Part shown: positions 1,749 through 35,848 of the stretch, one piece after another
How the letters are laid out: the number at the start of each line of letters is the position of its first letter
Position numbering within the stretch: the first letter of the stretch is position 1
IMG/VR virus record: IMGVR_UViG_3300006638_000002
Coordinates: 1 to 62,639 of that record
Strand: one strand, 5' to 3'
Length of the DNA: 62,639 nt
Source: a virus
Taxonomy: Duplodnaviria; Caudoviricetes
Notes under the pieces: generated by a model
What the model was told of the DNA's origin: nothing
Seen by the model: only the letters and a program-made list of their open reading frames with translations
Databases searched by the model: none
Made by a program: the position numbers and the translations under genes

Positions 1749-1903
1749 AGAAACTTTTTGTTACTCTCGGTTTATTGGCAGCCGTCTTGATCTGCGGTGG
1801 ATGGAATGTTCATGGCATACCGTCGCCATCGACTAGTTTCATGTTGGTAAACACCGGCTCATTTATGCTGGTGAATACCGGATCAAAATTGAAGGTGAAA
1901 TAA
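1745..1903 (+). CDS. 52-aa signal-peptide micro-protein with tandem SFMLVNTG repeat
   Basis: ATGA overlap upstream, TAATG overlap downstream; MKKLFVTLGLLAAVLICGG N-terminus. Confidence 0.65.
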   Translation: MKKLFVTLGLLAAVLICGGWNVHGIPSPSTSFMLVNTGSFMLVNTGSKLKVK

Positions 1904-14367: not shown

Positions 14368-15797
14368 CAACTGGCACACAGATTGGCGTTCCTCTTAGTC
14401 CCGCCGAAACTAATACTTTCCGTATTGTCGCGGCGATCAGGGCGCTACAAAATCCAGCGAGCGCGCCGGTATTACAAACCACAATTTTCAATGTCTATCC
14501 CTCTGGTGGAGACGACACGGCCAAAATTCAAGCAGCAATCAACTCGGCCTCTGCGGCTGGACGTGGAACGGTGTTTCTACAGCCAGGGCTCTACAAAACA
14601 TCATCAGTTATAACACTTGCCGCTAATGTCGATGTGATTGGAGCAAGTCGTGACTCTGTTTTGATATTCCCGCAGACAAACTCACAGAAAGTCTTTTCTC
14701 TAATCTATAGCGTTCTGACCTATACAAATGTGGTTCTCTCTGATTTTACGATCTACACCGGAGCAACTACGGGCGTAGTTGGCATTGCGCAGACACTTAC
14801 GAGAAACGTCGCATTTCGTAATCTAGTTTTTCAGGGCACTGGTGCCGGGTCAATCGTTTTAGATCGAGTTCAGGCATTTTTAATGTCCGACATTCTGGTT
14901 GAAGGAAATCCCGGCCAGGGCGCAGGGGGCATCAAACTGTGGAGTTCAGACGATAGCAACTACGGCTCTTATGGCAGCATTACCAACTTGATTGGAGTCA
15001 ATATCGGTAACGGATTTCAGACTCCGTTTCTATACCTTCGCCGCATGGTTGGGGTGATGTGTACCAACATCAGTGCCAATGATCTTGTCATTGGCGGAAC
15101 GCCGCAGGATGGCATCATTATTGAAAACGACAGCCAAGGCAATTCATTCAGTAACATCTTGATTGGTGCGTCAAGCGTTGGTGTTCGGGTTCAGCAGGGG
15201 GCAGGCATAGTTGCATCTCCGACTTTTAATGTATTTTCAAACTTGGGAATAGATCAGCCTCATACGGCGTCAATTCTACATTCTTCCGGCGAATGGAATA
15301 GTTTTGATGGTGGGGCACTTACATCCTCAGGTGCTGTTACGACGATTACGGCCGTACAACTTACTGGCGGGTCTTCTTTACGAATTAACAATTTCACGGT
15401 CGTCGGGTTCAACGGAGTTGGGGGGCAAGCTATAGCTATTGGTGCAGGCGTCGGCAATTCCATCATTAGTGAAAATATCGTGAATGGCAACACTACCACC
15501 ATTACGGATAGCGGTACGACAAATACTGTAATTGACAATCTAGGCTACAACCCTGTCGGAGCCTCTGGGCCGACTACGGTTGGAACATCGCCTGCAACAA
15601 TTACGAATGGCGCTTCACCGGCCACTTACTATTTCCTGCAAAGCGCAACCAATACAGCAACTGTTGCCCAGGGGGGGCACACGCTGGGGACACTCAGCAG
15701 CACCACACTGCCGCTTACGGTCGATCTTGGGCCGAATGAAAGCGTGGTTGTGACTTGGATAACTACAGCGCCAACTTACACAGTTTCGGTTCATTAA
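14364..15797 (+). CDS. Tailspike, pectate-lyase-like beta-helix (no signal peptide)
   Basis: GDDTAKIQAAINSA...GTVFLQPGLY motif; only one Cys seen. Confidence 0.8.
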   Translation: MTTGTQIGVPLSPAETNTFRIVAAIRALQNPASAPVLQTTIFNVYPSGGDDTAKIQAAINSASAAGRGTVFLQPGLYKTSSVITLAANVDVIGASRDSVLIFPQTNSQKVFSLIYSVLTYTNVVLSDFTIYTGATTGVVGIAQTLTRNVAFRNLVFQGTGAGSIVLDRVQAFLMSDILVEGNPGQGAGGIKLWSSDDSNYGSYGSITNLIGVNIGNGFQTPFLYLRRMVGVMCTNISANDLVIGGTPQDGIIIENDSQGNSFSNILIGASSVGVRVQQGAGIVASPTFNVFSNLGIDQPHTASILHSSGEWNSFDGGALTSSGAVTTITAVQLTGGSSLRINNFTVVGFNGVGGQAIAIGAGVGNSIISENIVNGNTTTITDSGTTNTVIDNLGYNPVGASGPTTVGTSPATITNGASPATYYFLQSATNTATVAQGGHTLGTLSSTTLPLTVDLGPNESVVVTWITTAPTYTVSVH

Positions 15798-16228: not shown

Positions 16229-17314
16229 ATGTCCGGTGGTGGCAGCCAAACTACACAGCAATCGCAGAACAGCGTCTCGTCTCCTTGGTCAGCAGCCCAA
16301 CCGTTGCTTACCAATCTGCTCAATTCCTACGGCGGATTGAATACTTCGGTGACCCCTGCTCAGACGGCGGCATCAGGGCAACTCGTATCCGATACCAGCG
16401 GGATTCCGAACCAAGGCGCAGGCGCTACTAGCGCGGTCAATAACGCGCTGAATTTCAATACCACTCCGCAGATGGGAATGCTGGGAGGTGCGTTTAATAC
16501 GATGTCGAGCAACCTAGCTCCGCTGACCAATCCGGCCAATCTCAATCCGTATAATACGCCAGGATTCAGCACCGCGCTCAATACTATGAATTCGGACATT
16601 ACCAAGCAGGTCGGCAATCAATATGCTGCGTCTGGTCGTGATCCTGCTGGTGCTGGCTCCCAGCCTCAAACGCTCGCCCGCGGACTGAGCCAAGGCGAAG
16701 GTCAACTAATCGCGAATCAGTACAACACGAATGCCGGAAACCTGCTGAGTGCGAACAATAGCGTGTTCGGTGCTGGCAATACGACAGCGCAGGGACAGGC
16801 TAATCTTGGGGCCACGGGGGCCGGGGTCAATCTCGCTGGCGTCAGTGCTGTACCAGGAGCATCTACCGCCTATTCCTCACCGGGGGCTACCGCGCTCACT
16901 GCGGCCAATGCTGCTCAATCAACGCCATGGACAAACCTTGCTCAATTGCTCACGCCTGCGGCGACGATCGGATCTCTCGGCGGTCAGACTTCTGGCAGCG
17001 GGACGTCGACGACCACGGGATCGACGAGCCTTCTGTCGAATATCATGGGCGGCGCGTCTGCTGGCATCGGTATGCTATCGCTGCTCTCTGATAAACGCGC
17101 TAAGACCGATATCCAGCCTGTCGGAAAATTGAACGATGGCCAGGTTATTCACAAATTCCGCATGAAGGGCGAGCCGCATTTCCAAATCGGTCTGCTTGCC
17201 CAAGAGGTCCAAAAGAAGGTGCCTAGCGCGGTTGGCAGCACGCCTATGGGCTTGCTCAACGTGAACTATGATCGCGCGACTCAGCGTTCCGCACAAATGA
17301 AGGAGGCCGCTTAG
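16229..17314 (+). CDS. Ejection/pilot-like protein with C-terminal peptidase S74 (intramolecular chaperone) domain
   Basis: MSGGGSQTT..PW N-terminus; SDKRAKTDI..VG, IGLLAQEV, VNYD motifs. Confidence 0.75.
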   Translation: MSGGGSQTTQQSQNSVSSPWSAAQPLLTNLLNSYGGLNTSVTPAQTAASGQLVSDTSGIPNQGAGATSAVNNALNFNTTPQMGMLGGAFNTMSSNLAPLTNPANLNPYNTPGFSTALNTMNSDITKQVGNQYAASGRDPAGAGSQPQTLARGLSQGEGQLIANQYNTNAGNLLSANNSVFGAGNTTAQGQANLGATGAGVNLAGVSAVPGASTAYSSPGATALTAANAAQSTPWTNLAQLLTPAATIGSLGGQTSGSGTSTTTGSTSLLSNIMGGASAGIGMLSLLSDKRAKTDIQPVGKLNDGQVIHKFRMKGEPHFQIGLLAQEVQKKVPSAVGSTPMGLLNVNYDRATQRSAQMKEAA

Positions 17315-17698
17315 ATGGCTGCACCAAGTCTAATGAATATGACGATCCCGAATCTTCTCGCCAATTCGCCAAATCCACAAGCGCAGGGGCAGGCGATCTT
17401 GCAGGCCGCGCTCAGACAACAGCAACCTAATCCCGGTGCTCCCGCTGGTGGTGCGCCGCAAGGTGGCATCAGCGGCATGATGAATAACGGGCTTTTGTCG
17501 AAGATGTTTCCCTCGATGTTCGGTGGGGCCGCTGCGGGTGCCCCGACAAGTCTCGCGCCTCCTGGTGCGGCGCCCGGCGGTCCAGTCGGGCCCGGGATCG
17601 ATCCGAATACCGGATTGCCGCCGACTGGCGCATCGGCTGCTATGCCTAACTTTGGCGGCGCGGGCCCGGCGCCTACGGCTATGACCGGACTGTGGTGA
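17315..17698 (+). CDS. Pro/Gly/Ala-rich hypothetical (ejection module)
   Basis: AAGGAGG SD; abuts previous stop. Confidence 0.6.
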   Translation: MAAPSLMNMTIPNLLANSPNPQAQGQAILQAALRQQQPNPGAPAGGAPQGGISGMMNNGLLSKMFPSMFGGAAAGAPTSLAPPGAAPGGPVGPGIDPNTGLPPTGASAAMPNFGGAGPAPTAMTGLW

Positions 17699-17706
17699 GG
17701 TAATTC

Positions 17707-19512
17707 GTGCCTGGATTGTTAGACAATCTGCTGGCGAGCTTGGCGCTGTCCAATATGCAGCAGCCACAGCCGGGTAATACCTATTCGCCCACTGGGGCGG
17801 AGGGCATGCCCGATATGTCCGCGACCGATCCTTTTGCCAATGCACCTGCCCCTGCCGCGCCTAAGCCCGGGGCGCAGTCCTTTGGCCCGTTCGCTGGTCT
17901 GCTCAATGCACCGGCTGGAACGCCCTATAGCCAGCCCGTCGCCGGTTCCGACCAGCCACCGGCCACCAATGACGTACAGGCGCAGGAACCCCAAGTTTTC
18001 AAGGATGGGGTGCCTTTGCCCAAGCCGAGGCCAGATACAGGCCTCAATGGACGCGATGAGGTGCCCGCTGGTGCGCCGCTTTCGCTTGCCCCTCCCATGC
18101 CATCGGATTCCGCCAAATTGCCTCCCGGCGCGGCTCCTACGGGGCCTGCAAGCCCATCTGCGGGGCAGCCGCCTCCTTCATCGGGTGGAATCGGCAGTTT
18201 GCTGGGGAATGTGGCGAACAAGATATTCGACCCGAATCATGCCGCGACGTGGATGGCGTTGGCTTCCGGGTTTGCGGGGGCTCCGTCGCTCGGTATGGGC
18301 ATTGGTCGGGCTGCTGGGGCTGCGGTTCCAGCCATTGCGGCTGATCGGGCCAACGAACTGCGAATGAGCGCCATTTCTCAGACCTATCAGGCGGTCAGGT
18401 CACAACTGATAGCGCAGGGCAAGTCGCCGCAAGAGGCCGGTATGACGGCAATCGCAGCCGCGCAGAATCCTGAACTGCTTAAGATGCTGGCGCCGAAACT
18501 ATACAATGCGCTGCCGCCGACGGTGCATACGCAGACCGGCATGATGGGAGAACAGACGCTACGGGTATTTGATCCGAATAGCGGAACTTTCAAAGATCAA
18601 AACGGACAGACTGGCGCAGTCACTGGCGGTGTTCCTGCAACGCCTGAAAGCGAGCAGATTTTTAACAATATCGTTCAGGCTCGCACGCAGGGGGCCAATC
18701 AGGACCAGCTTCTTCAGCAAGTCCCCGTCCAATTGCGGGACTACGTTAAATCGATGCTGAAAGGAGATGCGATTCCCACCAATCTGCCTATGCGCGGGAA
18801 TGCCCGTACAAACGCGCTGACATTGGCCCATGCGATCGATCCATCATTTAACGAGAACCTTATCCCGATGCGGCAAACCTTTGCGAAGAGCATGGGTTCG
18901 ATGCAGGCTGCATCTTTTGGTGGTCAGGTTAAGAGTGCTGGCACGGTCATGCACCATTTGGATGACGCTCTTAGCCAGTTGCCGGTTCTTGAAAGCGGAA
19001 TTACTGGGGCATCTGAAATGCTTCCGGCACTCAATCCCTTGAAGGCTGGGCTTCGCGGTCAAATTGGCGACAAGCAATACAACGACGCCATCGGGCACTA
19101 TAAAGGCGCGATTAGCGGCATCGGCAATGAACTTGAGTATTTGCTGAAGGGCGGAGTTGGCACCGAAAAGTCGACGCAGGATATTATTGGAAGGCTCGAT
19201 ATCACTAAGAACGCTCCAAGCACGGTCAGGGGTGCGCTCGATGAAGTTCGCTCTCTGATGATGGGCCGACTTTCGAATGTGGCACAGGCAAAAGATCGTG
19301 CTTTTGGCTCCGATACCGATCCTCTGACGCTACTTGGTCCACAAGAGCGTGCGGTTGCTGAACGGTTGCAGGCAGGAACTTATGCTGGTCAGCAGCGCGC
19401 GGCTGCTGGCGGCGCTGCACCAGCCGCAACCGCTCCCGTTCCTCGTGCTGCCCCGCCTCCTGGCAATTACGTGTATAATCCGGCGACACGCACGCTGGTA
19501 CCGGCGCAATGA
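17707..19512 (+). CDS. Putative DNA ejection/internal virion protein
   Basis: Large Ala/Gly/Gln-rich ORF in ejection module. Confidence 0.7.
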   Translation: MPGLLDNLLASLALSNMQQPQPGNTYSPTGAEGMPDMSATDPFANAPAPAAPKPGAQSFGPFAGLLNAPAGTPYSQPVAGSDQPPATNDVQAQEPQVFKDGVPLPKPRPDTGLNGRDEVPAGAPLSLAPPMPSDSAKLPPGAAPTGPASPSAGQPPPSSGGIGSLLGNVANKIFDPNHAATWMALASGFAGAPSLGMGIGRAAGAAVPAIAADRANELRMSAISQTYQAVRSQLIAQGKSPQEAGMTAIAAAQNPELLKMLAPKLYNALPPTVHTQTGMMGEQTLRVFDPNSGTFKDQNGQTGAVTGGVPATPESEQIFNNIVQARTQGANQDQLLQQVPVQLRDYVKSMLKGDAIPTNLPMRGNARTNALTLAHAIDPSFNENLIPMRQTFAKSMGSMQAASFGGQVKSAGTVMHHLDDALSQLPVLESGITGASEMLPALNPLKAGLRGQIGDKQYNDAIGHYKGAISGIGNELEYLLKGGVGTEKSTQDIIGRLDITKNAPSTVRGALDEVRSLMMGRLSNVAQAKDRAFGSDTDPLTLLGPQERAVAERLQAGTYAGQQRAAAGGAAPAATAPVPRAAPPPGNYVYNPATRTLVPAQ

Positions 19513-22274
19513 CCATCAATGTTAAAGGCGCAGACGGCTCAAGTTTCGCCTTTCCTGACGGGACGGCCGAGGCGGATATAACTGGTGCCATGGATGCCCA
19601 TTATGGCTCTGCGGCCGCGCCGTCGGTCGCAAATGCTGACCCTCGATTTTCCGGTGGCGGCATGGCGGGCGAGAAATTCCTTGAAGGCGTTCCGGTTCTA
19701 GGCGGTGCAATCCCCTCAATCGGCGCAGCTATTTCGGCGGCCGCACAGCCACTGACTGGGGTAGGTGCTCCGGGTGCGACCTTTGCCGAACGCCATGCAG
19801 CCAATTTGGAGGCTGAAAAGGCGGCTTCAAAGGCAGCAGATATCGCGCAGCCTGGACTTTCGACGGCATTAAAAGTTGGCGGCGGAATAGCCTCTTTCGG
19901 TGGCGCGCTCAAAGCTGTTCCGGCGCTTGCTGGTCCGCTTGGTCTTGAAGGCACCATTCCGCAGATGGTCACCAAGGGCGCGATGTCCGGCGCCGGCATC
20001 AGTGCAGCCGATGCATTGGCGCGTGGCGAAGATCCCGGCTCCGCTGCGGTCGAAGGCGGTGTTTTGGGCGCTGCTGGTGGCCCTGTTGGTCGACTGATTG
20101 GCAAGACTGTGGGCGCCGGTATGCGCGCGGTACGCGGTGCCCCTGCGCTCGATCATGCGATCACCACGCCGGTTGCTGGCGTCGATGTGCCGGTTCCTAC
20201 GTCCGATCCGGCTGCTGCCTCTCAAATCGAGATTGCGCGCCGCGGTGGTGCTGGCGTTCCAGCCCAGCAGGTAGTCCAGCAAGGCGACCAAGGCGTGCAG
20301 GCTGCGCTCGAGCAGGCAAAGGGAAACATCGGCGCTTCTATCGATCCGAATGCCTCGCCGGCTGCTACCCCACAGGATTCCGCTGCCTCGGTGGCCGAGG
20401 AATTACGGGCGAACGAGGCTAATAGGTTCCAGACCGAACAATCGACCATGCAGCGGGCCACGCAAGGAACCAAAGACCTGCTGCAAAGTCTGGATACTAG
20501 TAGGCCAGTAACGCCCGTGGTACCGCCTGAGGCCCCTGTGGCTGGCGGTGCGCCAGCCATGGCCCCTCTGGCTACATCGGAGGCAGCCCCCCCTCTAGCC
20601 GGAACGGCCCCAGTTGCCGCTCCAACTGGCCCCACAATCCATGCAGAGTCCCCCCTAGCGGCGTCCGAAATCCTTTCGGCTGGCATCCAGCGCAAGGCCG
20701 AAGAGGCTGCCGCCGCCAGAACTGCTGCCTATGCGGCGAAGGCCGCCATTCCAGGAGAGTATAGCCGACAGGCACTAAAAAGCTCCGGCGATGCAATTCG
20801 ATCTGACTTGTCGAGCGGACCTATCGAGAACCGCGTTCGAGTAACCAGTTCTACTCCGAAGGCCACCGAAGCCCTCCAATTGATCGATGAGACGATTGGC
20901 GGCAGTCCTCCGCAGGCTCTGCCGAATGCTGCGGTGCCAAAATCGCAAATGACATTGGAACCGATCACTGGCGACACGATGGAGGGCGTTCGAAAAGGTC
21001 TAAATCAGATTTATGGAGACGCTTTGCGCTCGGCTAATGGTCCTGGCGGCAATCCAAGTGATGCGCGGGCAGTCGGACGAATCATCGATGCGTTCGACAC
21101 TCATATTTCGAACGTCGAGGACGCTGGCGGCTTCTCCGGTGATGCGAAAGCCCTCTCTGATGCACGCAACACAGCCCGCGCTTCCCATGTGGCTTATAAA
21201 ACGACTTTCGAGCCACGGAATCCAGGCGACAAGGCAGGTTCAAGCATCGAGAAGATCGTCGGGAAATTTGACGGTCAAGAAGCTGGTCCCGATCAGGTCA
21301 CGCAGATGGCTTATGGTTCCGCTGGTGAACCAGGTGGCACGCCAGCAGCGCAATTTGCGCAGCGAATAAAATCTATATTCGGTGAGAATTCTAAGGAATG
21401 GGCGGCCTATAAGCAGGGCCTCGCCTCTCACCTCATGAATGATGCGACTGGCAAGCCGCTCTCGCCAGCGGATGCGGCAGACCGAATCGATCAGTTCTTG
21501 AAAGCCCCAAAGGGCAAAATCTTAGGTCAAATGGCGCTAACTGCCGAAGATCGCGCGGCATTGGCTAATCATGCCGAGACATTGCGGGCGACTCAGCCTG
21601 TGGCACTGAAAGACCTAGGAACCGTGGATAAGTTGATCGGACGCATTACAGGCCGTGATGGTGGTCCGCCTGCATCGATCAATGAAGTCACCGATTATCT
21701 ATTCGGGCCCAGCAGCGGCAAGAAGGGACTTCAATTCCAACTGGCCACGCGGTTAAAGCGTGATCTATCGCCGGAAGGCTTTAATGCCTTGCGCACTGGC
21801 ATGTGGTCGAAGATGACCGGAGTCACCGAAGGCAAGACCGATCTGACGCCCAAGCGTCTGTCGGACAATCTTTTCGAGTTCTTGAATGGCTCGGGCAGTG
21901 ACTTGTCGAAGGTGCTCTATTCGCCGGCCGAGAGGACTGAAATGCTGCGGTTGGCGCAGGCGGTCAAGATGCACGTCCCGATCGCCGGCACTACCAATCC
22001 ATCCGGCACGGCGCCGATGCTGTCGAAGATCGCCCGCGGTGCCTCGCATCTGTTCTTGCCGACCGTTGGACTTGTCCATGGCGGAATTCCTGGTGCCATC
22101 GTTGGTGCCGCGGCGGACAAGGCGATCGGTAGCGTTTCGGCGGCGCGTGCGGCGCGCAAGGCAGGATTGTTGTATTATGGCCCGCAGCGTAGTGTTGCGA
22201 CCGACCCGCGTTTCGCCAAAGCGGCAGGCATCCTCACTCGGGGCGCCGCTCAGGGGCAGGTCGGCGGTCCCTAA
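19509..22274 (+). CDS. Large DNA ejection/internal virion protein
   Basis: 921 aa; F.FPDGT N-terminal motif, NPSGTA C-terminal motif, Gly-rich hydrophobic hairpins. Confidence 0.75.
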   Translation: MTINVKGADGSSFAFPDGTAEADITGAMDAHYGSAAAPSVANADPRFSGGGMAGEKFLEGVPVLGGAIPSIGAAISAAAQPLTGVGAPGATFAERHAANLEAEKAASKAADIAQPGLSTALKVGGGIASFGGALKAVPALAGPLGLEGTIPQMVTKGAMSGAGISAADALARGEDPGSAAVEGGVLGAAGGPVGRLIGKTVGAGMRAVRGAPALDHAITTPVAGVDVPVPTSDPAAASQIEIARRGGAGVPAQQVVQQGDQGVQAALEQAKGNIGASIDPNASPAATPQDSAASVAEELRANEANRFQTEQSTMQRATQGTKDLLQSLDTSRPVTPVVPPEAPVAGGAPAMAPLATSEAAPPLAGTAPVAAPTGPTIHAESPLAASEILSAGIQRKAEEAAAARTAAYAAKAAIPGEYSRQALKSSGDAIRSDLSSGPIENRVRVTSSTPKATEALQLIDETIGGSPPQALPNAAVPKSQMTLEPITGDTMEGVRKGLNQIYGDALRSANGPGGNPSDARAVGRIIDAFDTHISNVEDAGGFSGDAKALSDARNTARASHVAYKTTFEPRNPGDKAGSSIEKIVGKFDGQEAGPDQVTQMAYGSAGEPGGTPAAQFAQRIKSIFGENSKEWAAYKQGLASHLMNDATGKPLSPADAADRIDQFLKAPKGKILGQMALTAEDRAALANHAETLRATQPVALKDLGTVDKLIGRITGRDGGPPASINEVTDYLFGPSSGKKGLQFQLATRLKRDLSPEGFNALRTGMWSKMTGVTEGKTDLTPKRLSDNLFEFLNGSGSDLSKVLYSPAERTEMLRLAQAVKMHVPIAGTTNPSGTAPMLSKIARGASHLFLPTVGLVHGGIPGAIVGAAADKAIGSVSAARAARKAGLLYYGPQRSVATDPRFAKAAGILTRGAAQGQVGGP

Positions 22275-22425
22275 CGTCAAGCCATCGAGCGATGGCGACA
22301 ACTCCCACTAACAGCGCACCGGCGATCGTGGTTCCGATCAAGCCGATGAAGGCAGGAATGATGTAAAGGCGCAGTGCGACCATTATTCCGATGAAGGTCG
22401 CGACCATCGCAATCCGCAGGAGCAT
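22234..22425 (-). CDS. Antisense small membrane protein
   Basis: Fills the 155-bp gap in the late operon; two hydrophobic helices; start uncertain. Confidence 0.45.
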   Translation of the reverse strand: MLLRIAMVATFIGIMVALRLYIIPAFIGLIGTTIAGALLVGVVAIARWLDVRDRRPAPERRPE

Positions 22426-22429
22426 CGGT

Positions 22430-23185
22430 ATGGCTGACAGTTCTGTGGACATTCCCGCGATCATCCGTGAAAAAGCGGCGGCTTACGGCGTTGATCCAGA
22501 CACGCTTTTGCAAACGGCTAAAGTAGAAAGCAACCTCGACCCCACTAACGCTAATCCCGCGTCCTCTGCGAGGGGGTTATTCCAGCAAACCACCGGAAAC
22601 TGGAAGCAATATGGGAACGGCGGCGATCCGCTCGATCCAGTCGCTAGTGCTGATGCTGGCGCTCGGTTCATGGCGGCGAATCAGAAGCTACTCACGGCAT
22701 CCGGTATTCAGCCGACGCCTGGTGCGCTCTATCTGAGTCATTTCGCCGGGCCCGGGGGGGCGCTGAAGGTTCTCAAATCCGATCCGACTGCATCAGCGGC
22801 TGATATTCTCGGTCCCGCGGTGGTCAAGGCCAATCCATTCCTCGCCAATATGTCGGCAGGTGATTTGCAGTCATGGGCTGATCGCAAGATGAGCGGTTCG
22901 GCACCTGCTGGTGCGCCTGCTACCGCCGCGCCGACTCAAATGGCGTCCGCTGCTCCGGTCGCTGGCGGTGCTGCGCCTGACACATCGGCGGCTGCACCGA
23001 CCGAGCCAGCAATCAATCCAGACCTGATGGCGCAGTTGTCAGCCGTTCCTAAAATGCTGGCGCAATCGCAGCCGGATGTTTCGCAGCAGGCACCTCCACC
23101 GATGGCACCGATGTTCGATCCATCAGCACTCGCTCGCGCCCGCATACTGTCTCGTGTTATAGCTGGGCAGCCGATTACGGGATAG
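22430..23185 (+). CDS. Lytic transglycosylase (SLT-like), probably virion-associated
   Basis: AKVES..DP...NP.SSARGLFQ, LYLSHFAGPGGA motifs; AGGAG SD. Confidence 0.85.
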   Translation: MADSSVDIPAIIREKAAAYGVDPDTLLQTAKVESNLDPTNANPASSARGLFQQTTGNWKQYGNGGDPLDPVASADAGARFMAANQKLLTASGIQPTPGALYLSHFAGPGGALKVLKSDPTASAADILGPAVVKANPFLANMSAGDLQSWADRKMSGSAPAGAPATAAPTQMASAAPVAGGAAPDTSAAAPTEPAINPDLMAQLSAVPKMLAQSQPDVSQQAPPPMAPMFDPSALARARILSRVIAGQPITG

Positions 23186-23195
23186 GATTTGTCCA

Positions 23196-24266
23196 ATGCT
23201 ACGTTCTCGACCTTGGTTGATGATTATCGCACTGCTCGCTCTGGCTATCCCAGCGCAAGCCGCGATGTGGCAGTGGTCCAAGACGCCATCCTCGAATGCT
23301 ACTGCGGATCCCAGCGTGAACTGGTCGATCGGCATGGCCCCGAGTGCAGTGGATGCATCGGGGCGTGCCATGATGGCCCGCACTGCGGAAAATCGCGACG
23401 ACATTTCGGGCCTGCTTTCTGCTGGTGGTACTGCGACTGCCTATACCGTCACGACTAATCAAGGCCTTCCCGCTACTCCGAATGACGGGCAACTGCTTGG
23501 ATTCACCCCGACCAATACGAATGGGGCTGGCGTTACTCTGTCGGCGGACAGCGGCGGTGTTTTTCCAATTCAAAGTTCGGCTGGTACGGGAATTTCCAGC
23601 GGTTCTTTGGTATCCGGCACGCCATATACGGTGAAGTTCTCGGCTTCGGCTTCTGCATGGGTCGTGCGGAATTTCTTCGGCAGCCCATTCACAGTGCCGA
23701 TCGGCGCGATGCTGCCTTATACCGGGACGACTTCGCCAAATTCCAATTTCATATTTCCTGCAGGCCAGTGCATCTCGCGCACGACTTATGCTGCCTATTT
23801 CGTGCAGGTTAGCACGACATATGGTGCTTGCGATGGCAGCACGACTTTCGGCGTTCCAGACATGCGCGGTCGCACGATCGCTGCGATTGATAACCTTGGC
23901 GGCACGGCGGCCAATCGACTAACGACAACTTATTTTGGCTCTGATCCGACTGTGGTTGGCGATGCTGGTGGTTCGCAAAGTCATACGTTGACGCAATCGG
24001 AGTTGAGCGTTTCGCTAGGCACCGCGACAAGCACCGTTACCGATCCTGGCCACTCGCACGTTGAAACCGCCGCTCCTGGTTCAGGAGGATTAAGTGGCGT
24101 TGCAGTGCAAAGTGGTGCATCAGCGCAGGCTGCTACGAATTACACAACGCTGGCCGGCACGACAGGGATTAGCGTTGCAACTACTATTACGAACGCTGGT
24201 GGTGGAAATCCTCACGCCATTGTGCCGCCGATGATCGTGCTCTCCTACATACTTCGGGTGCTCTGA
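23196..24266 (+). CDS. Tail fibre with tail-collar domain and Sec signal peptide
   Basis: MLRSRPWLMIIALLALAIPAQA|AMWQW; VPIGAMLPY..GQCISRTTY..YGACDGSTTFGVPDMRGR..GG.QSHTLT..H.H..H..VPP collar/tip motifs. Confidence 0.85.
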   Translation: MLRSRPWLMIIALLALAIPAQAAMWQWSKTPSSNATADPSVNWSIGMAPSAVDASGRAMMARTAENRDDISGLLSAGGTATAYTVTTNQGLPATPNDGQLLGFTPTNTNGAGVTLSADSGGVFPIQSSAGTGISSGSLVSGTPYTVKFSASASAWVVRNFFGSPFTVPIGAMLPYTGTTSPNSNFIFPAGQCISRTTYAAYFVQVSTTYGACDGSTTFGVPDMRGRTIAAIDNLGGTAANRLTTTYFGSDPTVVGDAGGSQSHTLTQSELSVSLGTATSTVTDPGHSHVETAAPGSGGLSGVAVQSGASAQAATNYTTLAGTTGISVATTITNAGGGNPHAIVPPMIVLSYILRVL

Positions 24267-24700
24267 TGACCGTCCTCCGCACCAATCTTCACAATACCCG
24301 TGATTCTGCGCGGCAGATTCGGTTCGAGCCGACAGCGGGAATCACGGCGACAAATGTCCAGAAAGCCGTTGAACAAGGCGGCGGGGGTGGAGGTGGTGGC
24401 GGTCCAGTTGTTCCAACGAATATCTCCTTTTCAAACTCGCCATATACGGTGCTGTCGACCGATACTTTCCTCGCCGTCGATACGGCTGGCGGCGCAGTGG
24501 TTATTGATCTGGTAGCGGCTGCGTCTCGTTCGCTTCCCATAACCATCAAAGACATGACCGGACATGCAAACACTAATCCAATGAGCATCGTTCCGAATGG
24601 TGCAGAGACTATCGATGGCCTAAGCCCCTATTCGGTTGGCTCCGATTTTGGTGGCGTCCAACTCATTCCGCAGACTGGCGGCTATATGGTTGCCCCATGA
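24266..24700 (+). CDS. Tail fibre-associated protein (no signal peptide, no Cys)
   Basis: I.F.P..GITATNVQ.A motif, Gly9 linker, IKD..G.A.TN...I...G.ETIDG domain. Confidence 0.75.
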   Translation: MTVLRTNLHNTRDSARQIRFEPTAGITATNVQKAVEQGGGGGGGGGPVVPTNISFSNSPYTVLSTDTFLAVDTAGGAVVIDLVAAASRSLPITIKDMTGHANTNPMSIVPNGAETIDGLSPYSVGSDFGGVQLIPQTGGYMVAP

Positions 24701-26610
24701 AGATTATCTTACGAATCCTTATCGCCTTTGGCCTTCTGCTCGGACAGGCCTACGCGCAACAGGGCGCGCAGTTGCCGGCAGGTACTGCGTTTGGCAATGC
24801 GGGATCATTGAGAGCGCCTGCTGTTCCTGTACCGTTTTCGACGATTGTCTCGATGGGAGGCGGCGGTGGAGGAGGTGGCGGCTCGTCGACAATAAATCGG
24901 CAGGATTTCTGTTTAGTCGGAATTACGGGCTGCCTTTATACATTTAGCTCCGGCGCGACATCGGTAACTCTGGCCACGACGCCAGCCAGCACGAATTCCG
25001 TCACTGTCTCGTTTAACGGGGTGACCCAAGCCGGAAACACTTGGTCGCTTTCCGGCAGCACGATAACATTCGCCGCTGCTGTACCATCTGATGTGAAGGT
25101 GATCGATGTCACGTCTCTGTCGGCCAGCATCTCGAGCGGCACGGTCACGAGCGTTGGCCTATCCGATGCTTCGGCTACACCGATCTACGCAATTACCAAT
25201 AGCCCAGTCACAAACTCTGGAAGCCTTACATTAACACTGACTACTAAAAGTCCGAACGTGGTGTTTGCTGGGCCATCGAGCGGAGGGGCGAATCAGCCAA
25301 GCTTTCGCTCTTTAGTTGGCGCTGATTTGCCTTTACCAGCCGCGGCCACATTGGGCGGCATTAAGAGCATTACGTCAGTCGCGTCTAACTGGATTTCAGA
25401 CATTGGAACAGACGGCACGCCGCATCAATCACAGCCGACATATACCGATCTTGCTGCTGGTGCGCCGACATCAACGGCGTCCGTCCTCGGGCTCGTAAAA
25501 CCTGATGCGACGACAATCACGATTTCTAGCGGAATATTGACCGCCGCTACGGCTACATCGTCGACATTGGGTGTTGTGAAGCCGGACAATTCGACAATTA
25601 CAATCTCGGCTGGCGTGATTAGCGCAGTGGGATCATCGCTCACGGTCGGATCCACAATTACCGGCTCATGCACGTCTGGCTATGTTGTCTATAGCAATTC
25701 CGGTGTTGTCGGCTGCGAATTGCTGGCTGGTGGCGGCAATGTCAGCAACTCTGGAACACCTACGATTGGACAGCTTGCAATCTGGACCAACGCGACGACC
25801 GTACAGGGTTTGACCGCGCTACCGGCCGCAAACTTTCCAGCCCTTACTGGCGATGTGACAACTGCTGGCGCCTCGCTCGCAACGACCGTTGCTAAGATCG
25901 ACGGATTCGCCATGTCGATCGGTGGGACGGTTACGACTGCGGGAAATGTTACCTTTGCAGGGGCATATCCATTCACCGGCACACTGACGGCCAGCACTAG
26001 CGTTACGTTCCCGACATCAGGGACACTGGTCAATTCCGGTGTGGCAACACTTAGCTCGCTAACCTCGGTTGGGGCGCTGGCGTCTGGATCGCTTACGACC
26101 GGCTTTACCGTCGTGCCTGCTGCAATAGGCGGCACTGGCGTTAACAACGGTAGCAATACGCTGACGCTTGGCGGCTCCATGACGACAACTGGCGCAGCAA
26201 CACCGACGTTTGCCTTCGGCTCAGGATCATGGACTTACACCTTTGCTGCGAGTGCAAATGATTCGGTCGCTCTGCTAGGCAAAGTCAGCCAAGCCTTCTC
26301 AGGTGGCGTTCACTTGACCTCGTATAATATCGGCACAGTGTCGAGCGGAACAACGACTATCGATTGCGGTAATGGTCCGAGCCAATATCTAACCAATGGT
26401 GGAGCATTCACGTTCGCAGCACCTAGCAGCGATAGCCAATGCCTTGTCATTGTTACGAACAACGGTAGCGCAGGAGCTATTACATTTTCTGGCTTTACGG
26501 CAGAGGCCAGTCACGGTGACGCTCTTGATACGACGAATGCCCATAAATTCACGGTGAGCGTATGGCGTGGTAATTCTACCGCCGACTACCGCGTGGTGGC
26601 GATGCAATGA
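24697..26610 (+). CDS. Tail fibre-like protein with Sec signal peptide
   Basis: MKIILRILIAFGLLLGQAYA|QQ; Gly9 linker; LG.VKPD..TITI..G repeats; PSFRSLV.ADLP; 6 Cys in three close pairs. Confidence 0.8.
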   Translation: MKIILRILIAFGLLLGQAYAQQGAQLPAGTAFGNAGSLRAPAVPVPFSTIVSMGGGGGGGGGSSTINRQDFCLVGITGCLYTFSSGATSVTLATTPASTNSVTVSFNGVTQAGNTWSLSGSTITFAAAVPSDVKVIDVTSLSASISSGTVTSVGLSDASATPIYAITNSPVTNSGSLTLTLTTKSPNVVFAGPSSGGANQPSFRSLVGADLPLPAAATLGGIKSITSVASNWISDIGTDGTPHQSQPTYTDLAAGAPTSTASVLGLVKPDATTITISSGILTAATATSSTLGVVKPDNSTITISAGVISAVGSSLTVGSTITGSCTSGYVVYSNSGVVGCELLAGGGNVSNSGTPTIGQLAIWTNATTVQGLTALPAANFPALTGDVTTAGASLATTVAKIDGFAMSIGGTVTTAGNVTFAGAYPFTGTLTASTSVTFPTSGTLVNSGVATLSSLTSVGALASGSLTTGFTVVPAAIGGTGVNNGSNTLTLGGSMTTTGAATPTFAFGSGSWTYTFAASANDSVALLGKVSQAFSGGVHLTSYNIGTVSSGTTTIDCGNGPSQYLTNGGAFTFAAPSSDSQCLVIVTNNGSAGAITFSGFTAEASHGDALDTTNAHKFTVSVWRGNSTADYRVVAMQ

Positions 26611-27386
26611 TGAAAAAGATTTTTGCATTTCTGATCTGTCTAGTGGCATTTACGTCGCCAGCGTGGGCGAGTATTACTTTCACTGCTGCGGGAACGCAGT
26701 CCAGCACATCGTCGAACACTCTTACATTAAATAGTTCGTCTACAAGTCCAGCAAGCATTCCGGCTGGCTCGGTCATCATATTATCCGTCACCGACTTATC
26801 TGGCAGCGGGACGCTTAGTTCCGTCGCAGACAACGCCGGAAACGTTTACTCGCTTGCCACGTCTAAAGCGCTGAATGGCTCATCCGCGACCGGAACAGGA
26901 TTTGTTTATATTAGCTACACCGGAAATGCGCTGAATCTTACAGCGAGCGGAACAATTACTTATACTCTTAATTTTTCTTCTGGCCCGCGTTCTGCTGTTG
27001 CCAGCGTCTCGTATGCAAGCGGAACGCTGCTAAGTTCGTCCGTATTAGACGCTACCGTTACGGCGACGGCGAGTGGGAACAGCGGGACCATTACGGTTGG
27101 CTCTGGCATCCCGGCAGTAGCTAATGAACTTCTGATCTGTGTATTCTCAAACAATAATGCTTCGACCTTTACGCAGGATAGCGGCAACGGTTGGGCTGCA
27201 CCGCCGACGAGAGCTATACAAGGAAGTTCTTCTCAGATCGCAGGCGGGAGTCAAGTAGCGAGCGCTGCTAAGACCTGCGTGCCGACATTGGGCACGAAAG
27301 GTTCGTGGGCCATTCAGACTATTGGGCTCAAGCCAGCAGTAACGATTGCTACGCCGTTTATCTTTCTTCCGGCTATCGTGCCATGA
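26607..27386 (+). CDS. Exported beta-rich protein with Sec signal peptide
   Basis: MMKKIFAFLICLVAFTSPAWA|SIT; SVADNAGNVY motif; two mature Cys. Confidence 0.8.
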   Translation: MMKKIFAFLICLVAFTSPAWASITFTAAGTQSSTSSNTLTLNSSSTSPASIPAGSVIILSVTDLSGSGTLSSVADNAGNVYSLATSKALNGSSATGTGFVYISYTGNALNLTASGTITYTLNFSSGPRSAVASVSYASGTLLSSSVLDATVTATASGNSGTITVGSGIPAVANELLICVFSNNNASTFTQDSGNGWAAPPTRAIQGSSSQIAGGSQVASAAKTCVPTLGTKGSWAIQTIGLKPAVTIATPFIFLPAIVP

Positions 27387-28297
27387 GGATTCATATGCTC
27401 AGATTAGCAAAACTCACGGTGGCATTTTTGGCTCTGACTGGCATTGCTTTCGCGGCTCCGCCGACCACGACAACGGTGCCTAGCCAATTGCTGACGATGC
27501 CGCTGGATAGCATCCTCACGACGATGACGCCGACTACTGCTGGCGCCGGATTTAATCTTCCGCAGGGGGTGGCTCCAACGGTGCCGAATAATGGCGACGT
27601 TTGGACAACGAGTGCTGGTTTGTTTTTTAGAATTGCTGGCGTGACTGTCGGCCCGATCGGTGCAAGCGGAATAACGATCAACGCGACTCCGGTCACGGGG
27701 GCGACGGCTGGACAAGTTTTATTTAGCGATGGTTCTAAATTGCAGGCCTATTCGATCACGGGAACGGCTGGCAATGCTGTGATGTCAAATGCGCCGACGA
27801 TTGCTTCGCCAATATTCACTGGCACTGTTGCTGGCAACGCGACGATTCCTTTGTCAATACTAGTGCAGGGCACTGCCAATTCTATGATCGGCAACTGGTC
27901 GAACAGCACCGGGTATTTCCAAGCCAATACGATGCCGCCATGTCCTGATACGGGCGGCCATCTCAATTATGTTTCAGGGGCCGGTATTACCTGTGGAACT
28001 GGCGGTAGCTTTGGCGGTCGTGTTATCACTGCGGCAGGTGCGGTCACAATCACAACTTCCGATGATGTGGTAATCATCAAGAAATCATCGCCTGCGACGA
28101 CAACGGTAAACCTGCCATCTAGCCCGGTTAACTGGCAGAAAATCAGGATCAAGGACGGGTCGTGCAACTCAGGAACCTTTGCCATTACGATCACACCGGC
28201 GGCTGGCAATATCGATAATGCATCGACCTACGTCCTCAACCGCAACTGCCAATCGGTCACGCTGACCTATGACGGCGCTCAATGGGACACGCTGTAA
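27383..28297 (+). CDS. Tail fibre-like protein with Sec signal peptide (start 27383 or 27395)
   Basis: MLRLAKLTVAFLALTGIAFA|APP; APT.P.NGDVW motif; C-terminal IKD.....ID..W domain; 4 Cys. Confidence 0.8.
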   Translation: MRIHMLRLAKLTVAFLALTGIAFAAPPTTTTVPSQLLTMPLDSILTTMTPTTAGAGFNLPQGVAPTVPNNGDVWTTSAGLFFRIAGVTVGPIGASGITINATPVTGATAGQVLFSDGSKLQAYSITGTAGNAVMSNAPTIASPIFTGTVAGNATIPLSILVQGTANSMIGNWSNSTGYFQANTMPPCPDTGGHLNYVSGAGITCGTGGSFGGRVITAAGAVTITTSDDVVIIKKSSPATTTVNLPSSPVNWQKIRIKDGSCNSGTFAITITPAAGNIDNASTYVLNRNCQSVTLTYDGAQWDTL

Positions 28298-29562
28298 TGA
28301 CCAACCTGATTAAGCCGGACAAGAAACTGATCTCGTCCAGACGCAAATTTATCGCTGGCGCTGCCGCGGTGCTGGCAATGCCTGCGGTGTTTCGATCAGA
28401 TGAGGCGCGGGCGTCTTTCGTGCCGGGCCCCTACGAACTATGGATCGATCAACTCGGCGCCAAGGGCGACGGCAGCACGGATGACACCACGGCGTTTAGT
28501 CGCATTGCTGGCTATCTGCCGAATGGCGGCACGGTTCGCCTGTCCAATGGCAAGAATTATCTATCGTCGTCAGGATTCACTATTCCTGAAGGTGTGACGC
28601 TTGCGGGACCGTATGGCCAGATCGGAATGAACGGTCTGACCGCAACGCATCTCGCCAACTTCCGCAGCATTACGCTGGGCTCTGGTGCGACCATCACCAT
28701 GAATCAATCATCCACGCTAACGGGGTGTGCAATTCTTCCGCAGGGAATGACGTTCCCGCAGTCGAGTCCTTCTGCATGGACAGGCACTGCGGTTACAATC
28801 GCACAGAGCAATGCTTGTGTTGAAAATTCAATGATTGCTGGCTTCGGTCTTGGTATTCATTCGGAAGGCACGGTTTCTGTTGGCGTAGACCGGACATATG
28901 TTCGGCATTGCCAGATGGATAATGTTGCTGGGATTCAAGCGGGATATTGTTTTGATGTCTCACGCTTTGAGGACATTCATTGCTGGCCGTTCTTGACCTA
29001 TAACTCAGGAACTCTCACACGCACCGGAACGGCCTATTTAGTAGACAATCCGAATGATTGGGGCGAGTTCAACTATTGTTTCGCGTATGGCTACGATAAA
29101 GGTTTCAGCAATTCGGGGGCAAGCTCTCTCACTTATAACTTATGTGGCGCGGATACGTGCGCGACCTATGGATTTGTCCATTCCGGCACTCCAAGCGCCG
29201 ACGTAAGCTACATCGGATGCAATGCGGGCGGATGTGGGAATGGCATCTACATTTCTAGTCAGTATGCCGGTGATGCGATAGCAACTATCTCCGCCTGTCG
29301 CTTTTGGTCAAATACCAACGGAATAGCCGTTGATGCATCAAACCTTATCCCAATCACTGTGACAGGCGGTTCGAATCGCGATAATACCGCATGGGGAATT
29401 AATTGCGCTTCTAGCCATACTGGTTCCAAGATGACAGTGACCGGCGCTGTGTTCCAAGGCAATTCGAGCGGTGCCGCTGCCACATTAGCCACTGGCGTTT
29501 TGACCTCATGCGTACTTAGCGGTGAGACTGTCACCGGCTTTACGCAGTCGAACAATATCTAA
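28297..29562 (+). CDS. Pectate-lyase-like beta-helix tailspike with twin-arginine (Tat) signal
   Basis: SSRRKFIAGAAAVLAMPAVFRSDEARA|S then LGAKGDGSTDDTTAF...GGTV...GKNY. Confidence 0.8.
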   Translation: MTNLIKPDKKLISSRRKFIAGAAAVLAMPAVFRSDEARASFVPGPYELWIDQLGAKGDGSTDDTTAFSRIAGYLPNGGTVRLSNGKNYLSSSGFTIPEGVTLAGPYGQIGMNGLTATHLANFRSITLGSGATITMNQSSTLTGCAILPQGMTFPQSSPSAWTGTAVTIAQSNACVENSMIAGFGLGIHSEGTVSVGVDRTYVRHCQMDNVAGIQAGYCFDVSRFEDIHCWPFLTYNSGTLTRTGTAYLVDNPNDWGEFNYCFAYGYDKGFSNSGASSLTYNLCGADTCATYGFVHSGTPSADVSYIGCNAGGCGNGIYISSQYAGDAIATISACRFWSNTNGIAVDASNLIPITVTGGSNRDNTAWGINCASSHTGSKMTVTGAVFQGNSSGAAATLATGVLTSCVLSGETVTGFTQSNNI

Positions 29563-30919: not shown

Positions 30920-31537
30920 ATGAAGTCGGCAAAGCTTTTACTAGCGGCCTTTCTGATTATTGCCCCGCTTTCGGTGTGCGCTCAGACGCCTCCGATTACC
31001 CTTACCCCAACGAACGTGACTACAACGACTCTTCCAGCAACGGGTCCTGCGGCTACTGCTGCACCTGCGGTCACGCAGAACACTGTTTCAACGACGGGCC
31101 CGGTTGAAAGCAAAACCACCATTAGCGTCGGTACATTGGCCGGCGAAGTCCTACAATGGCTCGCGGCTGCGTTTAGCGTTCCGATCGGCGGTTTGCTCAC
31201 GGCATGGCTCTATCGCCTATTTAAACTTGCTGGGGTGAATGTTGCGGATGGTCTGCGGACAAAATTGCAGGAGATCATCATCAACGGCTTGAACGCCGGT
31301 GCCAAGAATACGGCCGACCAGATGCAGGGCAGAGGCCAAGTCGAGATCAAGAATGCAGTGGTGGCTCAGGCCGTAGTTTATGCGCAGGCCCATGCCGCCG
31401 AAACGCTTAAGCAACTTGGGCTCGATCCGCAGAGCGGCGCCGCGGTGGAAGCAATCAAGGCTCGCATTGAAACCGCCATCAATGATCCGTCTGCTCCTAC
31501 GCCGCCAGTTCTAGACGGCCATCCAAAGGCTGCATGA
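30920..31537 (+). CDS. Holin-like membrane protein with N-terminal signal peptide
   Basis: MKSAKLLLAAFLIIAPLSVCA|Q, Thr/Pro linker, one TM, helical C-domain (AVVYAQ..A.E.LK.LG) resembling LL-H-type holins. Confidence 0.55.
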   Translation: MKSAKLLLAAFLIIAPLSVCAQTPPITLTPTNVTTTTLPATGPAATAAPAVTQNTVSTTGPVESKTTISVGTLAGEVLQWLAAAFSVPIGGLLTAWLYRLFKLAGVNVADGLRTKLQEIIINGLNAGAKNTADQMQGRGQVEIKNAVVAQAVVYAQAHAAETLKQLGLDPQSGAAVEAIKARIETAINDPSAPTPPVLDGHPKAA

Positions 31538-32679: not shown

Positions 32680-32991
32680 ATGAAGAATTTTCTACGAGTT
32701 CTTCCGATTGTCGGCACGTTGCTGGTCGGTGGTTGCGGTGTGACCAACCCGTTTACCGGCGTTCCAGTCACGGCGGCTGATGTTCAGGCTGCTGCGGTCG
32801 CCGCTTGCGGCTTCCTGCCTACGGCTTCGACCGTTGCCAACATCATCGCTGCAGGAAATCCAGCAGTGGCTACGGTGTCAACTATCGCCGCGGCCATTTG
32901 CTCGGCTGTGGTCGGCGCGAAGGGTCGCAGGCTTGGTGGCGCTGTGCCGAACGTGAACGGCGTTCCTGTTCATGGGCGCTTCGTCCAGTAA
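32680..32991 (+). CDS. Lipoprotein (possible spanin-type)
   Basis: MKNFLRVLPIVGTLLVGG|C lipobox; in lysis region. Confidence 0.7.
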   Translation: MKNFLRVLPIVGTLLVGGCGVTNPFTGVPVTAADVQAAAVAACGFLPTASTVANIIAAGNPAVATVSTIAAAICSAVVGAKGRRLGGAVPNVNGVPVHGRFVQ

Positions 32992-35161: not shown

Positions 35162-35848
35162 ATGCGACCGCGCCTTTTATTGCTTGCCATTGCCTCCACC
35201 ATCGCCATTTCTGCCCCAGCCCAAGCCCGTCATTCCCGCACTGCACAATCCGGTTCCGTTACCCGCTATTGCGGTGATCGAGTATGCCCATCCTACGGAA
35301 AGGTGGCCGATCGTCCTGTTAGGGGCCGCCACGCTGTCAGCCAGGTGCCCCACCATCGCGTAGAAGCCTACCGTAGGCACCATGAGGGCCATAGGGAGAG
35401 GATAATCGCTACACGGCCATCTGTGGGCGAATCCGGCTCAGGGATCGTCCATTCGTCTAAAACCGGCGCGATCGCCCATGTTGCGGCGCGGTATGCTGGA
35501 ATGTTTCAGGCTTATATCAACGATCTCGAGCAGAACTATGGGGCTGTCGTGAAGTTCATCGGCGGTCTACGCCGCGGGCGATGTTCTCCGGGCAGCCAGC
35601 ATCCATGTGGCAAGGCGTTAGACGTCTGCCAGTTATCGCGCGATCAAGTGGACGGTCGTTGCCATCTGCCGGGGCGTTCTACGCTTATCGCGGTGGCTTC
35701 TAAGCATGGTCTGCAGGAAGGCGGTCAATGGTGTCACGGTGACATGGGCCACGCCCAGGTCAGTCCAAGTGCCGGACCATGCGGATCGCAAATGATGGCA
35801 CGGAGCCACATGCGTCGGCGCCATCACGTTCGGTACGCTCGCCGGTGA
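35162..35848 (+). CDS. Secreted M15-like (Zn peptidase fold) protein
   Basis: MRPRLLLLAIASTIAISAPAQA|R; SQHPCGKALD (HxxxxxxD) and DMGHAQ; GGAG SD. Confidence 0.7.
   Translation: MRPRLLLLAIASTIAISAPAQARHSRTAQSGSVTRYCGDRVCPSYGKVADRPVRGRHAVSQVPHHRVEAYRRHHEGHRERIIATRPSVGESGSGIVHSSKTGAIAHVAARYAGMFQAYINDLEQNYGAVVKFIGGLRRGRCSPGSQHPCGKALDVCQLSRDQVDGRCHLPGRSTLIAVASKHGLQEGGQWCHGDMGHAQVSPSAGPCGSQMMARSHMRRRHHVRYARR

Follow-up and report, generated by a model that had tools for sequence, protein, structure and literature searches.

The DNA analysed here is a viral stretch of 62,639 bases from an uncultured soil phage (IMG/VR virus record IMGVR_UViG_3300006638_000002, completeness estimate 96 %), referred to below as the window. 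The element under study is a tail fibre gene at positions 23196-24266 whose product carries a predicted secretion signal and two cysteines in its collar domain. The window also encodes a portal protein (phrog_156), a major head protein of the HK97 type (phrog_334), internal or ejection proteins and an SLT transglycosylase; its lysis cassette includes a GH108 endolysin and an M15 peptidase. The nearest match to the capsid protein is that of Rhizobium phage RHph_Y1_10 (52 % identity), and the genomes that contain relatives of the fibre are nearly all those of Bradyrhizobium and allied Hyphomicrobiales. The phage is a short-tailed one of roughly 63 kb, and a Bradyrhizobium-like alphaproteobacterium is its most likely host.

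The fibre open reading frame (ORF) encodes 356 amino acids (aa), with the stop codon at 24264-24266. The ORF, the features located along it and the genes that follow it up to position 26610 all lie on the plus strand. The ATG at 23196 is preceded, at a distance of 8 nucleotides (nt), by a Shine-Dalgarno-like AGGA (23184-23187) that overlaps the stop codon of the SLT transglycosylase gene; the gap between the end of that gene and the fibre ATG is 10 nt.

The fibre matches the PHROG tail protein family phrog_8763 (4.3e-30). Residues 23-72 (23262-23411) form a conserved N-terminal domain with nearly invariant columns (AMWQWSKT...NW..GM.PS....S.RA.MA), which is covered by phrog_30879 at profile positions 3-52 of 64 and is presumed to be the virion-attachment end. 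A phage tail collar domain (PF07484) occupies residues 170-228 (23703-23879); the match scored 45.8 bits against a cut-off of 24, spanned profile positions 1-57 of 57, and reached 48.8 bits in a second run. An AlphaFold2 model built from 101 aligned sequences had a mean predicted local distance difference test score (pLDDT) of 81, with values >90 across the collar. Foldseek matched this model to the tail fibre of cyanophage A-1(L) (8kec, E 8.6e-07), and to T4 gp12 structures, namely 1pdi, 1ocy and 5iv5 (E 2-5e-04) and 5lye (probability 1.00, root mean square deviation 1.2 Å over 59 columns). A His-x-His motif, H286-S-H288 (24051-24059), follows the collar within DPGHSH (residues 283-288). The pattern DPGHxH is present in the family consensus of 101 sequences, and Foldseek matches to 1ocy and 2xgf were obtained. 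Motifs of this kind are typical of trimeric metal-binding fibre tips such as those of T4 gp12 and gp37. The layout is that of a trimeric fibre of the tail-collar, receptor-binding type.

In front of the N-terminal domain lies a predicted signal peptide (residues 1-22, 23196-23261, MLRSRPWLMIIALLALAIPAQA, followed by AMWQWSKT). Its parts are a positively charged n-region with R3 and R5 (MLRSRP), an h-region of 12 hydrophobic residues (WLMIIALLALAI), which is within the usual 7-15, and a c-region ending in PAQA, with small residues at -3 and -1 and an A after the cut. Signal peptidase I is predicted to cut after A-Q-A, between A22 and A23, and the mature fibre would then comprise residues 23-356 (23262-24263). 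Two other signal types were considered and rejected. A Tat signal (S/T-R-R-x-F-L-K) does not fit, R3 and R5 being non-adjacent, and a lipoprotein signal (lipobox [LVI][ASTVI][GAS]C) would need a cysteine at +1, whereas the fibre has none near the cleavage site. Residues 1-22 thus have the appearance of a Sec signal peptide, with export and cleavage as such being predicted.

The collar cysteine pair among homologues

The only two cysteines of the fibre lie in its collar, within residues 190-218 (GQCISRTTYAAYFVQVSTTYGACDGSTTF). Cys192 (codon tgc, 23769-23771) is the first residue of a strand in the model (192-194) and is replaced by Ala in signal-less relatives. Cys212 (codon tgc, 23829-23831) lies in the YG.xDG loop between a helix (199-205) and a strand (217-219) and is replaced by Gly. 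At both sites the PF07484 consensus has small residues (A in G-Q-A-[IV]-S-R and G in Y-G-x-G-D-G). The fibre, with cysteines at both, departs from it there; this is a variant within the Collar family and no ground for exclusion from it.

Homologues were taken from the best 120 of 1128 matches in a word-indexed search, and the rest from the best 150 of 25,050 matches in an exhaustive search of representatives at 50 % identity. Of 264 proteins gathered in this way, two longer than 700 aa were removed and 262 were aligned. A protein was scored as signal-bearing if it started with M, had at least 18 residues before the alignment column of M24 and contained a 9-residue window with a mean Kyte-Doolittle hydropathy of at least 2.0. 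This heuristic split the set into 128 signal-bearing proteins, 115 proteins with no more than 8 residues before the M24 column (referred to as signal-less), 16 fragments and 3 odd cases. The N-terminal extensions of the 128 signal-bearing proteins are 22-55 aa long (median 25) and contain 1-3 K/R in the first ten residues and a hydrophobic core. Position -3 is A in 104 of them, position -1 is A, G or S in 118, and the residue before the M24 column is A, Q or S in 121. After the cut, signal-bearing homologues continue with [A/Q/S], a hydrophobic residue and then W/Y-Q-W-S-K-T. The n-h-c features and the A-x-A site are retained among them despite divergent sequences.

The cysteine pair was present in 111 of 124 signal-bearing homologues with a whole collar and in none of 113 signal-less homologues with a whole collar. 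The latter had no cysteine at either site and nearly always A and G. As a second sample, drawn from the same public data and therefore overlapping with the first, fibre genes in 129 fetched loci were read from one stop codon to the next, which kept wrongly called starts from hiding signals. The pair was found in all nine signal-bearing loci, in none of 107 signal-less loci with a collar and in none of nine unclear ones. Fetched loci also yielded 114 collar domains that are more distant and belong to other types of phage; 95 of them had A/G at the two sites and none had a cysteine at either. The association between the cysteine pair and the signal peptide is far beyond chance. An earlier note on this DNA had described the two cysteines as the only ones of the protein, had placed them in a collar at 23696-23880, had given a collar consensus free of cysteine and had proposed to align homologues and test whether the pair correlates with a signal peptide. 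The two cysteines are confirmed as the only ones, the interval agrees with the Pfam match, the consensus fits both the 113 signal-less collars and the 114 distant ones, and the correlation is strongly positive.

The second cysteine is kept even where its position changes. Five proteins with a whole collar have no cysteine in the aligned column of C212, and in these a cysteine is found 1-4 residues further along the same loop; in P0179 the sequence ends before the loop and the site is absent. The first cysteine is always accompanied by a partner in the YG..DG loop, and altered loops (GSPASG.CPGGQ, GT..CTTGNF) keep a shifted second cysteine. A fixed cysteine on the strand with a partner wandering within the loop fits, as judged on the model, a staple that holds the loop. 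The occurrence of A and G, the smallest residues, in nearly all other collars suggests that the two sites are closely packed. We also note two loci, L084 and L162, in which the fibre ORF (upstream of about 7380 and 9056, respectively) has a long hydrophobic N-terminal extension (GLGVVMALIGLGMIAH...ARPAT), A/G at both sites and two cysteines elsewhere. These fibres were left unclassified by the signal rule, and a membrane-anchored form is possible.

Cysteine numbers in the mature parts of the proteins differ between the two groups. Among the 128 signal-bearing homologues, 124 have an even number (none in 5 proteins, two in 52, four in 53, six in 12 and eight in 2) and 4 an odd one (three in 2 proteins, seven in 1 and nine in 1). 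Among the 115 signal-less homologues parity looks random (none in 37 proteins, one in 31, two in 29, three in 11, four in 4 and five in 3). Further co-occurring cysteine columns were found, in the signal-bearing set only: columns 24 and 66 (13/13), columns 102 and 145 (7/7), and column 258 (52 proteins), which pairs with 247 or 249 (49 proteins). Fourteen homologues have a cysteine at column 24, which pairs with column 66 in the 13 of 13 cases just given; at -3 these homologues carry H, D, N or S. An even-cysteine bias in exported proteins is reportedly a signature of disulfide formation, a finding ascribed to Dutton et al. in PNAS in 2008. From their strict co-occurrence, the loop partner that is never lost and the even counts, C192 and C212 appear to behave as a disulfide would.

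Trees were built from the mature protein with the cysteine columns removed, and they are unrooted. FastTree gave 17-25 changes of signal state and a quick maximum-likelihood tree of 194 rows (70 % identity filter) gave 18, most of the changes being on weakly supported branches. On supported branches 5-6 independent contrasts remained, in which the cysteine pair changed in the same way as the signal in 4-5, showed no difference in 1-2 and went in the opposite direction in none. In an approximately unbiased (AU) test on a 62-row subset (31 + 31), monophyly of the signal-bearing proteins cost 147 log-likelihood units and was rejected (p-AU 0.012). In some cases a signal-less and a signal-bearing protein resemble each other more closely, over the entire mature part, than signal-bearing proteins on average resemble one another; P0017 and P0020, for example, share 82/62/61/75/47 % identity in five regions, the means being 70/50/57/35/30. 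As read from these sequences, the signal state and the cysteine pair either switched together more than once or parts of the gene were exchanged with the association kept, and both would point to selection and not just to linkage. The single ancestral event pictured in the earlier note, in which a cytoplasmic fibre received a signal peptide and then fixed a disulfide, is accordingly doubtful. The order of the two steps fares better: it fits the asymmetry between 13 signal-bearing proteins without the pair and no signal-less protein with it, but on unrooted trees a gain is indistinguishable from a loss.

The place at which the signal joins the fibre was also compared. The earlier note had pointed to an internal methionine just after the predicted cut (M24, ATG 23265, start of MWQWSKT) and had taken it for the old start. 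The ATG indeed has no Shine-Dalgarno-like run in the preceding 20 nt (ctatcccagcgcaagccgcg), whereas the ATG at 23196 has the AGGA. The second part of the claim does not agree with the alignment, in which the M24 column corresponds to residue 3 (F/V/L) of signal-less fibres. These begin M-[A/S/T/P]-[F/V/L/I]-W, and their Met1 maps to about residue 22, position -1 of the cleavage site. Met occupies the M24 column in only 16 of the 128 signal-bearing proteins and in 2 of the 115 signal-less ones, and an internal start at this position was therefore rejected as a feature of the family. The N-terminal length of predicted mature signal-bearing fibres equals that of signal-less fibres after removal of Met1. 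Such agreement would be expected if the cut falls at precisely this point and the mature end serves a function, presumably docking.

Genes around the fibre gene

The fibre gene is followed by a companion gene (24266-24700) for a protein of 144 aa that has neither a signal peptide nor cysteines and is encoded between two fibres that both look exported. The protein gave a weak Pfam match resembling the N-terminal part of T4 gp9/gp10 (E 0.00099, below the cut-off), and a structure search in the ESM Atlas returned a PF07880 row that reached the bar of that search. Of nine signal-bearing loci, eight contain a homologue of the companion gene, as against none of 110 signal-less loci, of which 98 have at least 1 kb of downstream sequence and about 30 have the phage backbone in common. 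The collar-type fibre gp12 of T4 is held by gp10. By analogy, the companion protein may be a dock or a helper for exported fibres. In loci L012, L015, L089, L117 and L181 the ORF after the companion gene again begins with a signal peptide.

In the window that ORF is a second fibre-like gene (24697-26610), which encodes 637 aa with a predicted signal peptide (MKIILRILIAFGLLLGQAYA, cut before QQ) and 6 cysteines in the mature part. Its homologues were sorted with a heuristic that misclassified at least one of them; of the 120 listed, 35 of 38 signal-bearing proteins have an even number of cysteines, mostly 6-18, and the 79 signal-less ones mostly have 0-2, the commonest count being 1. The companion gene and the second fibre-like gene each contain a run of nine glycine codons, at 24377-24403 (QGGGGGGGGGPV) and 24856-24882 (MGGGGGGGGGSS). 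The two runs are encoded by similar GGN repeats, and a flexible hinge or a recombination site is possible.

Next come two exported-looking ORFs with Sec-type signals, starting at 26607 (259 aa) and 27395 (300 aa), and an ORF from 28282 to 29562 (426 aa, 13 cysteines) that contains the twin-arginine motif SRRKFI and gave a weak match of the pectate-lyase kind, below the cut-off (E 1.1e-4). No NCBIfam family was found for the six ORFs of 23196-29559. The five Sec/Tat ORFs of 23196-29562 (1978 aa) together hold 28 cysteines, in contrast to their upstream neighbours: five consecutive signal-less structural or ejection proteins (361, 127, 601, 921 and 264 aa), encoded at 16229-23185, have no cysteine in 2274 aa. 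A crude count of ORFs with a signal-like start in the 5 kb that follow the fibre gene gave 8/32 for signal-bearing loci and 55/331 for signal-less loci. The difference is small and the count too noisy to be of use, since wrong frames were picked where the DNA is rich in G+C and the lysis genes of either group have signals.

Exported-looking ORFs are also seen elsewhere in the window. Upstream of the portal gene, an ORF of 511 aa (1903-3438) begins with a signal peptide (MLRFMVGLILLGLISQANA before A) and has 10 cysteines; it had no match in Pfam or PHROG. Past the endolysins there are three more, at 30920-31537, 32680-32991 and 35162-35848: one of 205 aa with a Sec signal, one of 103 aa with a lipobox-like LLVGGC, possibly an outer-membrane spanin, and one of 228 aa with a signal and 8 cysteines.

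Probable export of the fibre and alternative explanations

We consider it probable that the fibre is exported through Sec and contains a C192-C212 disulfide. The earlier note regarded the cysteine pair as evidence for export. In view of its tie to the signal and its disulfide-like behaviour, the pair is good internal evidence of this kind. The precursor of the fibre, which has a cleavable Sec signal (residues 1-22), would cross the inner membrane unfolded, and signal peptidase I would cut it after A-Q-A. The mature protein would then start with A-M-W-Q-W-S-K-T and have the same N-terminal length as signal-less fibres after Met1 removal. In the oxidising periplasm C192 and C212 would form an intrachain disulfide, stapling the YG..DG loop (C212) to the start of a collar beta-strand (C192), at sites that are Ala and Gly in cytoplasmic relatives. 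With the particle being built in the cytoplasm, the oxidised fibre could be added to it only once the two compartments are merged by holin and lysis, and the signal-less 144-aa gp9/gp10-like protein encoded next door might serve as its mount.

The weakest link in this scheme is the step at which fibres join the particle only at lysis, which we propose tentatively. A wider scheme of morphogenesis in two compartments, in which fibres travel via Sec, the spike-like enzyme travels via Tat, disulfides form in the periplasm and mounting on an adaptor takes place at lysis, is conceivable and is likewise somewhat doubtful.

Several points weigh against export with a disulfide, or against a place of such a fibre on the virion. 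Signal peptides were called with our own heuristic and not with SignalP. Among signal-bearing proteins with a whole collar 13 of 124 lack the pair, and five signal-bearing proteins have no cysteine at all; export therefore does not require the pair. The sign test on the supported contrasts was underpowered (median p 0.06-0.125), and 15 of the rows in the 62-row AU subset were forced into it, having been picked after the tree had been seen. Fibre genes recombine, and some of the apparent transitions may be exchanges of gene parts. Sequence searches of the PDB, for which either the entire protein or just its collar was the query, retrieved no solved collar with a cysteine at either site. The window also encodes a signal-less tailspike-like protein (14364-15797), which could be the real virion adhesin. 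Finally, since the particles of tailed phages assemble in the cytoplasm, no route is known by which an exported fibre would reach the virion.

The last two points lead to the alternative that survives best, although we regard it as unlikely: the fibre would be exported and disulfide-bonded without being a part of the virion and would remain unattached in the periplasm or at the surface of the cell. By masking or occupying the receptor, it could exclude superinfecting phages or stop the progeny from re-adsorbing to debris. It could also act, together with neighbouring exported proteins that bind or cut sugars, on the host envelope before release. Such a role would suit a gene from a series of five Sec/Tat ORFs (23196-29562) that immediately precedes the lysis genes, the Tat-signal protein with the weak pectate-lyase-like match being one of them. 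The signal-less tailspike-like protein encoded upstream and the assembly of particles in the cytoplasm also speak for this reading. There are, in addition, cellular precedents for exported fibre-like proteins, namely the MAT fibres of Bdellovibrio (PMC10769870) and WceF of Pantoea (PMC7949094). Against this, the mature protein corresponds from end to end and in the same order, N-terminal domain included, to signal-less fibres of related phages and prophages, and about 30 signal-less loci share the same backbone genes. The gene occupies the place of the only fibre gene of the signal-less relatives, after SLT and before the endolysin. Moreover, cleavage would recreate the exact N-terminal length of signal-less fibres, which argues that the docking end is still needed.

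Much less probable is a fibre whose two cysteines form no disulfide and are instead metal ligands, free thiols or simply a lineage marker of the signal-bearing version. Most signal-bearing proteins are related, so that shared ancestry yields much of the raw correlation, and the supported independent contrasts number only five. Against this, the two cysteines are never found singly, the second is kept at a shifted place when the loop changes, at least three other co-occurring pairs exist in subsets of the signal-bearing proteins, and 124 of 128 have even parity. Nor is a metal site shared along the axis likely, since the collar is located off the fibre axis in T4 gp12.

The least probable alternative, very improbable in our view, is that the extension is not used for export, with translation starting at Met24 (23265), where an in-frame ATG directly follows the predicted cleavage site, or with the extension remaining as an uncleaved membrane anchor, so that folding takes place in the cytoplasm and a disulfide, if any, forms only after release into air; against it stand the Shine-Dalgarno-like run before 23196 and none before 23265, the gap of only 10 nt to the previous gene, Met in column 24 of just 16 of the 128 signal-bearing homologues, the n-h-c features and A-x-A site kept in spite of divergence, and the lack of the pair in signal-less fibres (0/113 and 0/107), in which oxidation after release would predict it.

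Comparison with known systems

In textbook tailed phages all parts of the virion fold and assemble in the reducing cytoplasm. In the full-text literature searched, supplementary files excepted, we came across no description of a tailed-phage fibre that is exported through Sec. The cultured-phage collection contained no signal-bearing form of the fibre: the closest one was the signal-less fibre of ppBeUSDA76-2, and none of the 397 matching phage records covered 80 % of the fibre query.

The natural family is large, with a signal in 128 of the 262 homologues sampled, and in it a secretion signal and structural cysteine pairs come and go together. This joint gain or loss suggests that receptor-binding proteins can mature in the periplasm. 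If that is true, soil phages would have adhesins stabilised by disulfides and a late assembly step after lysis, a two-compartment morphogenesis that is not described for Caudoviricetes. Determinants of host range would then escape any annotation pipeline in which signal-bearing ORFs are discarded as 'not structural'.

The closest known systems include the fibres of Bradyrhizobium prophages and the 'tail fiber protein' of phage ppBeUSDA76-2 (OP596614.1). They have the same N-terminal domain, shaft, collar and tip as the fibre studied here (40-52 % identity), and their genes are found at the same place, after a lysozyme or SLT gene and before the endolysin. These signal-less fibres differ in starting with M-[T/S/A]-[L/F]-[Y/W]-K-W-S, in having A and G at the two collar sites and an odd number of cysteines or none, and in the absence of a homologue of the 144-aa gene downstream.

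T4 gp12 and the fibre of cyanophage A-1(L) (1ocy, 5lye and 8kec) share with the fibre the Collar domain, the His-x-His motif behind it and the trimeric layout. They differ from it in having no signal peptide and in the residues at the two sites, which are T and S in gp12 and N and N in 8kec. Both are assembled in the cytoplasm.

Another phage adhesin, the P22 tailspike, is not known to have a signal peptide either. It is described as a cytoplasmic adhesin whose cysteines matter for folding and whose native form contains no disulfide (PMC3357383). A tailspike-like fold is described for WceF of Pantoea (PMC7949094), and in one study the absence of signal peptides was used as a sign of the phage origin of fibre-like proteins (PMC6199706). 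The MAT fibres of Bdellovibrio bacteriovorus resemble the fibre studied here in that they are phage-fibre-like trimers with a signal peptide and contain disulfides in their tip domains (PMC10769870). They differ in being encoded by the cell and located on the surface of the predator, and they are not homologous in the collar, a term absent from that paper.

Among phage proteins, the minor coat protein g3p of filamentous phages is an adsorption protein that likewise has a Sec signal and disulfides. Filamentous phages, however, are assembled at the membrane and extruded, while the phage in the window has a portal and an HK97-type capsid and its particle is therefore built in the cytoplasm.

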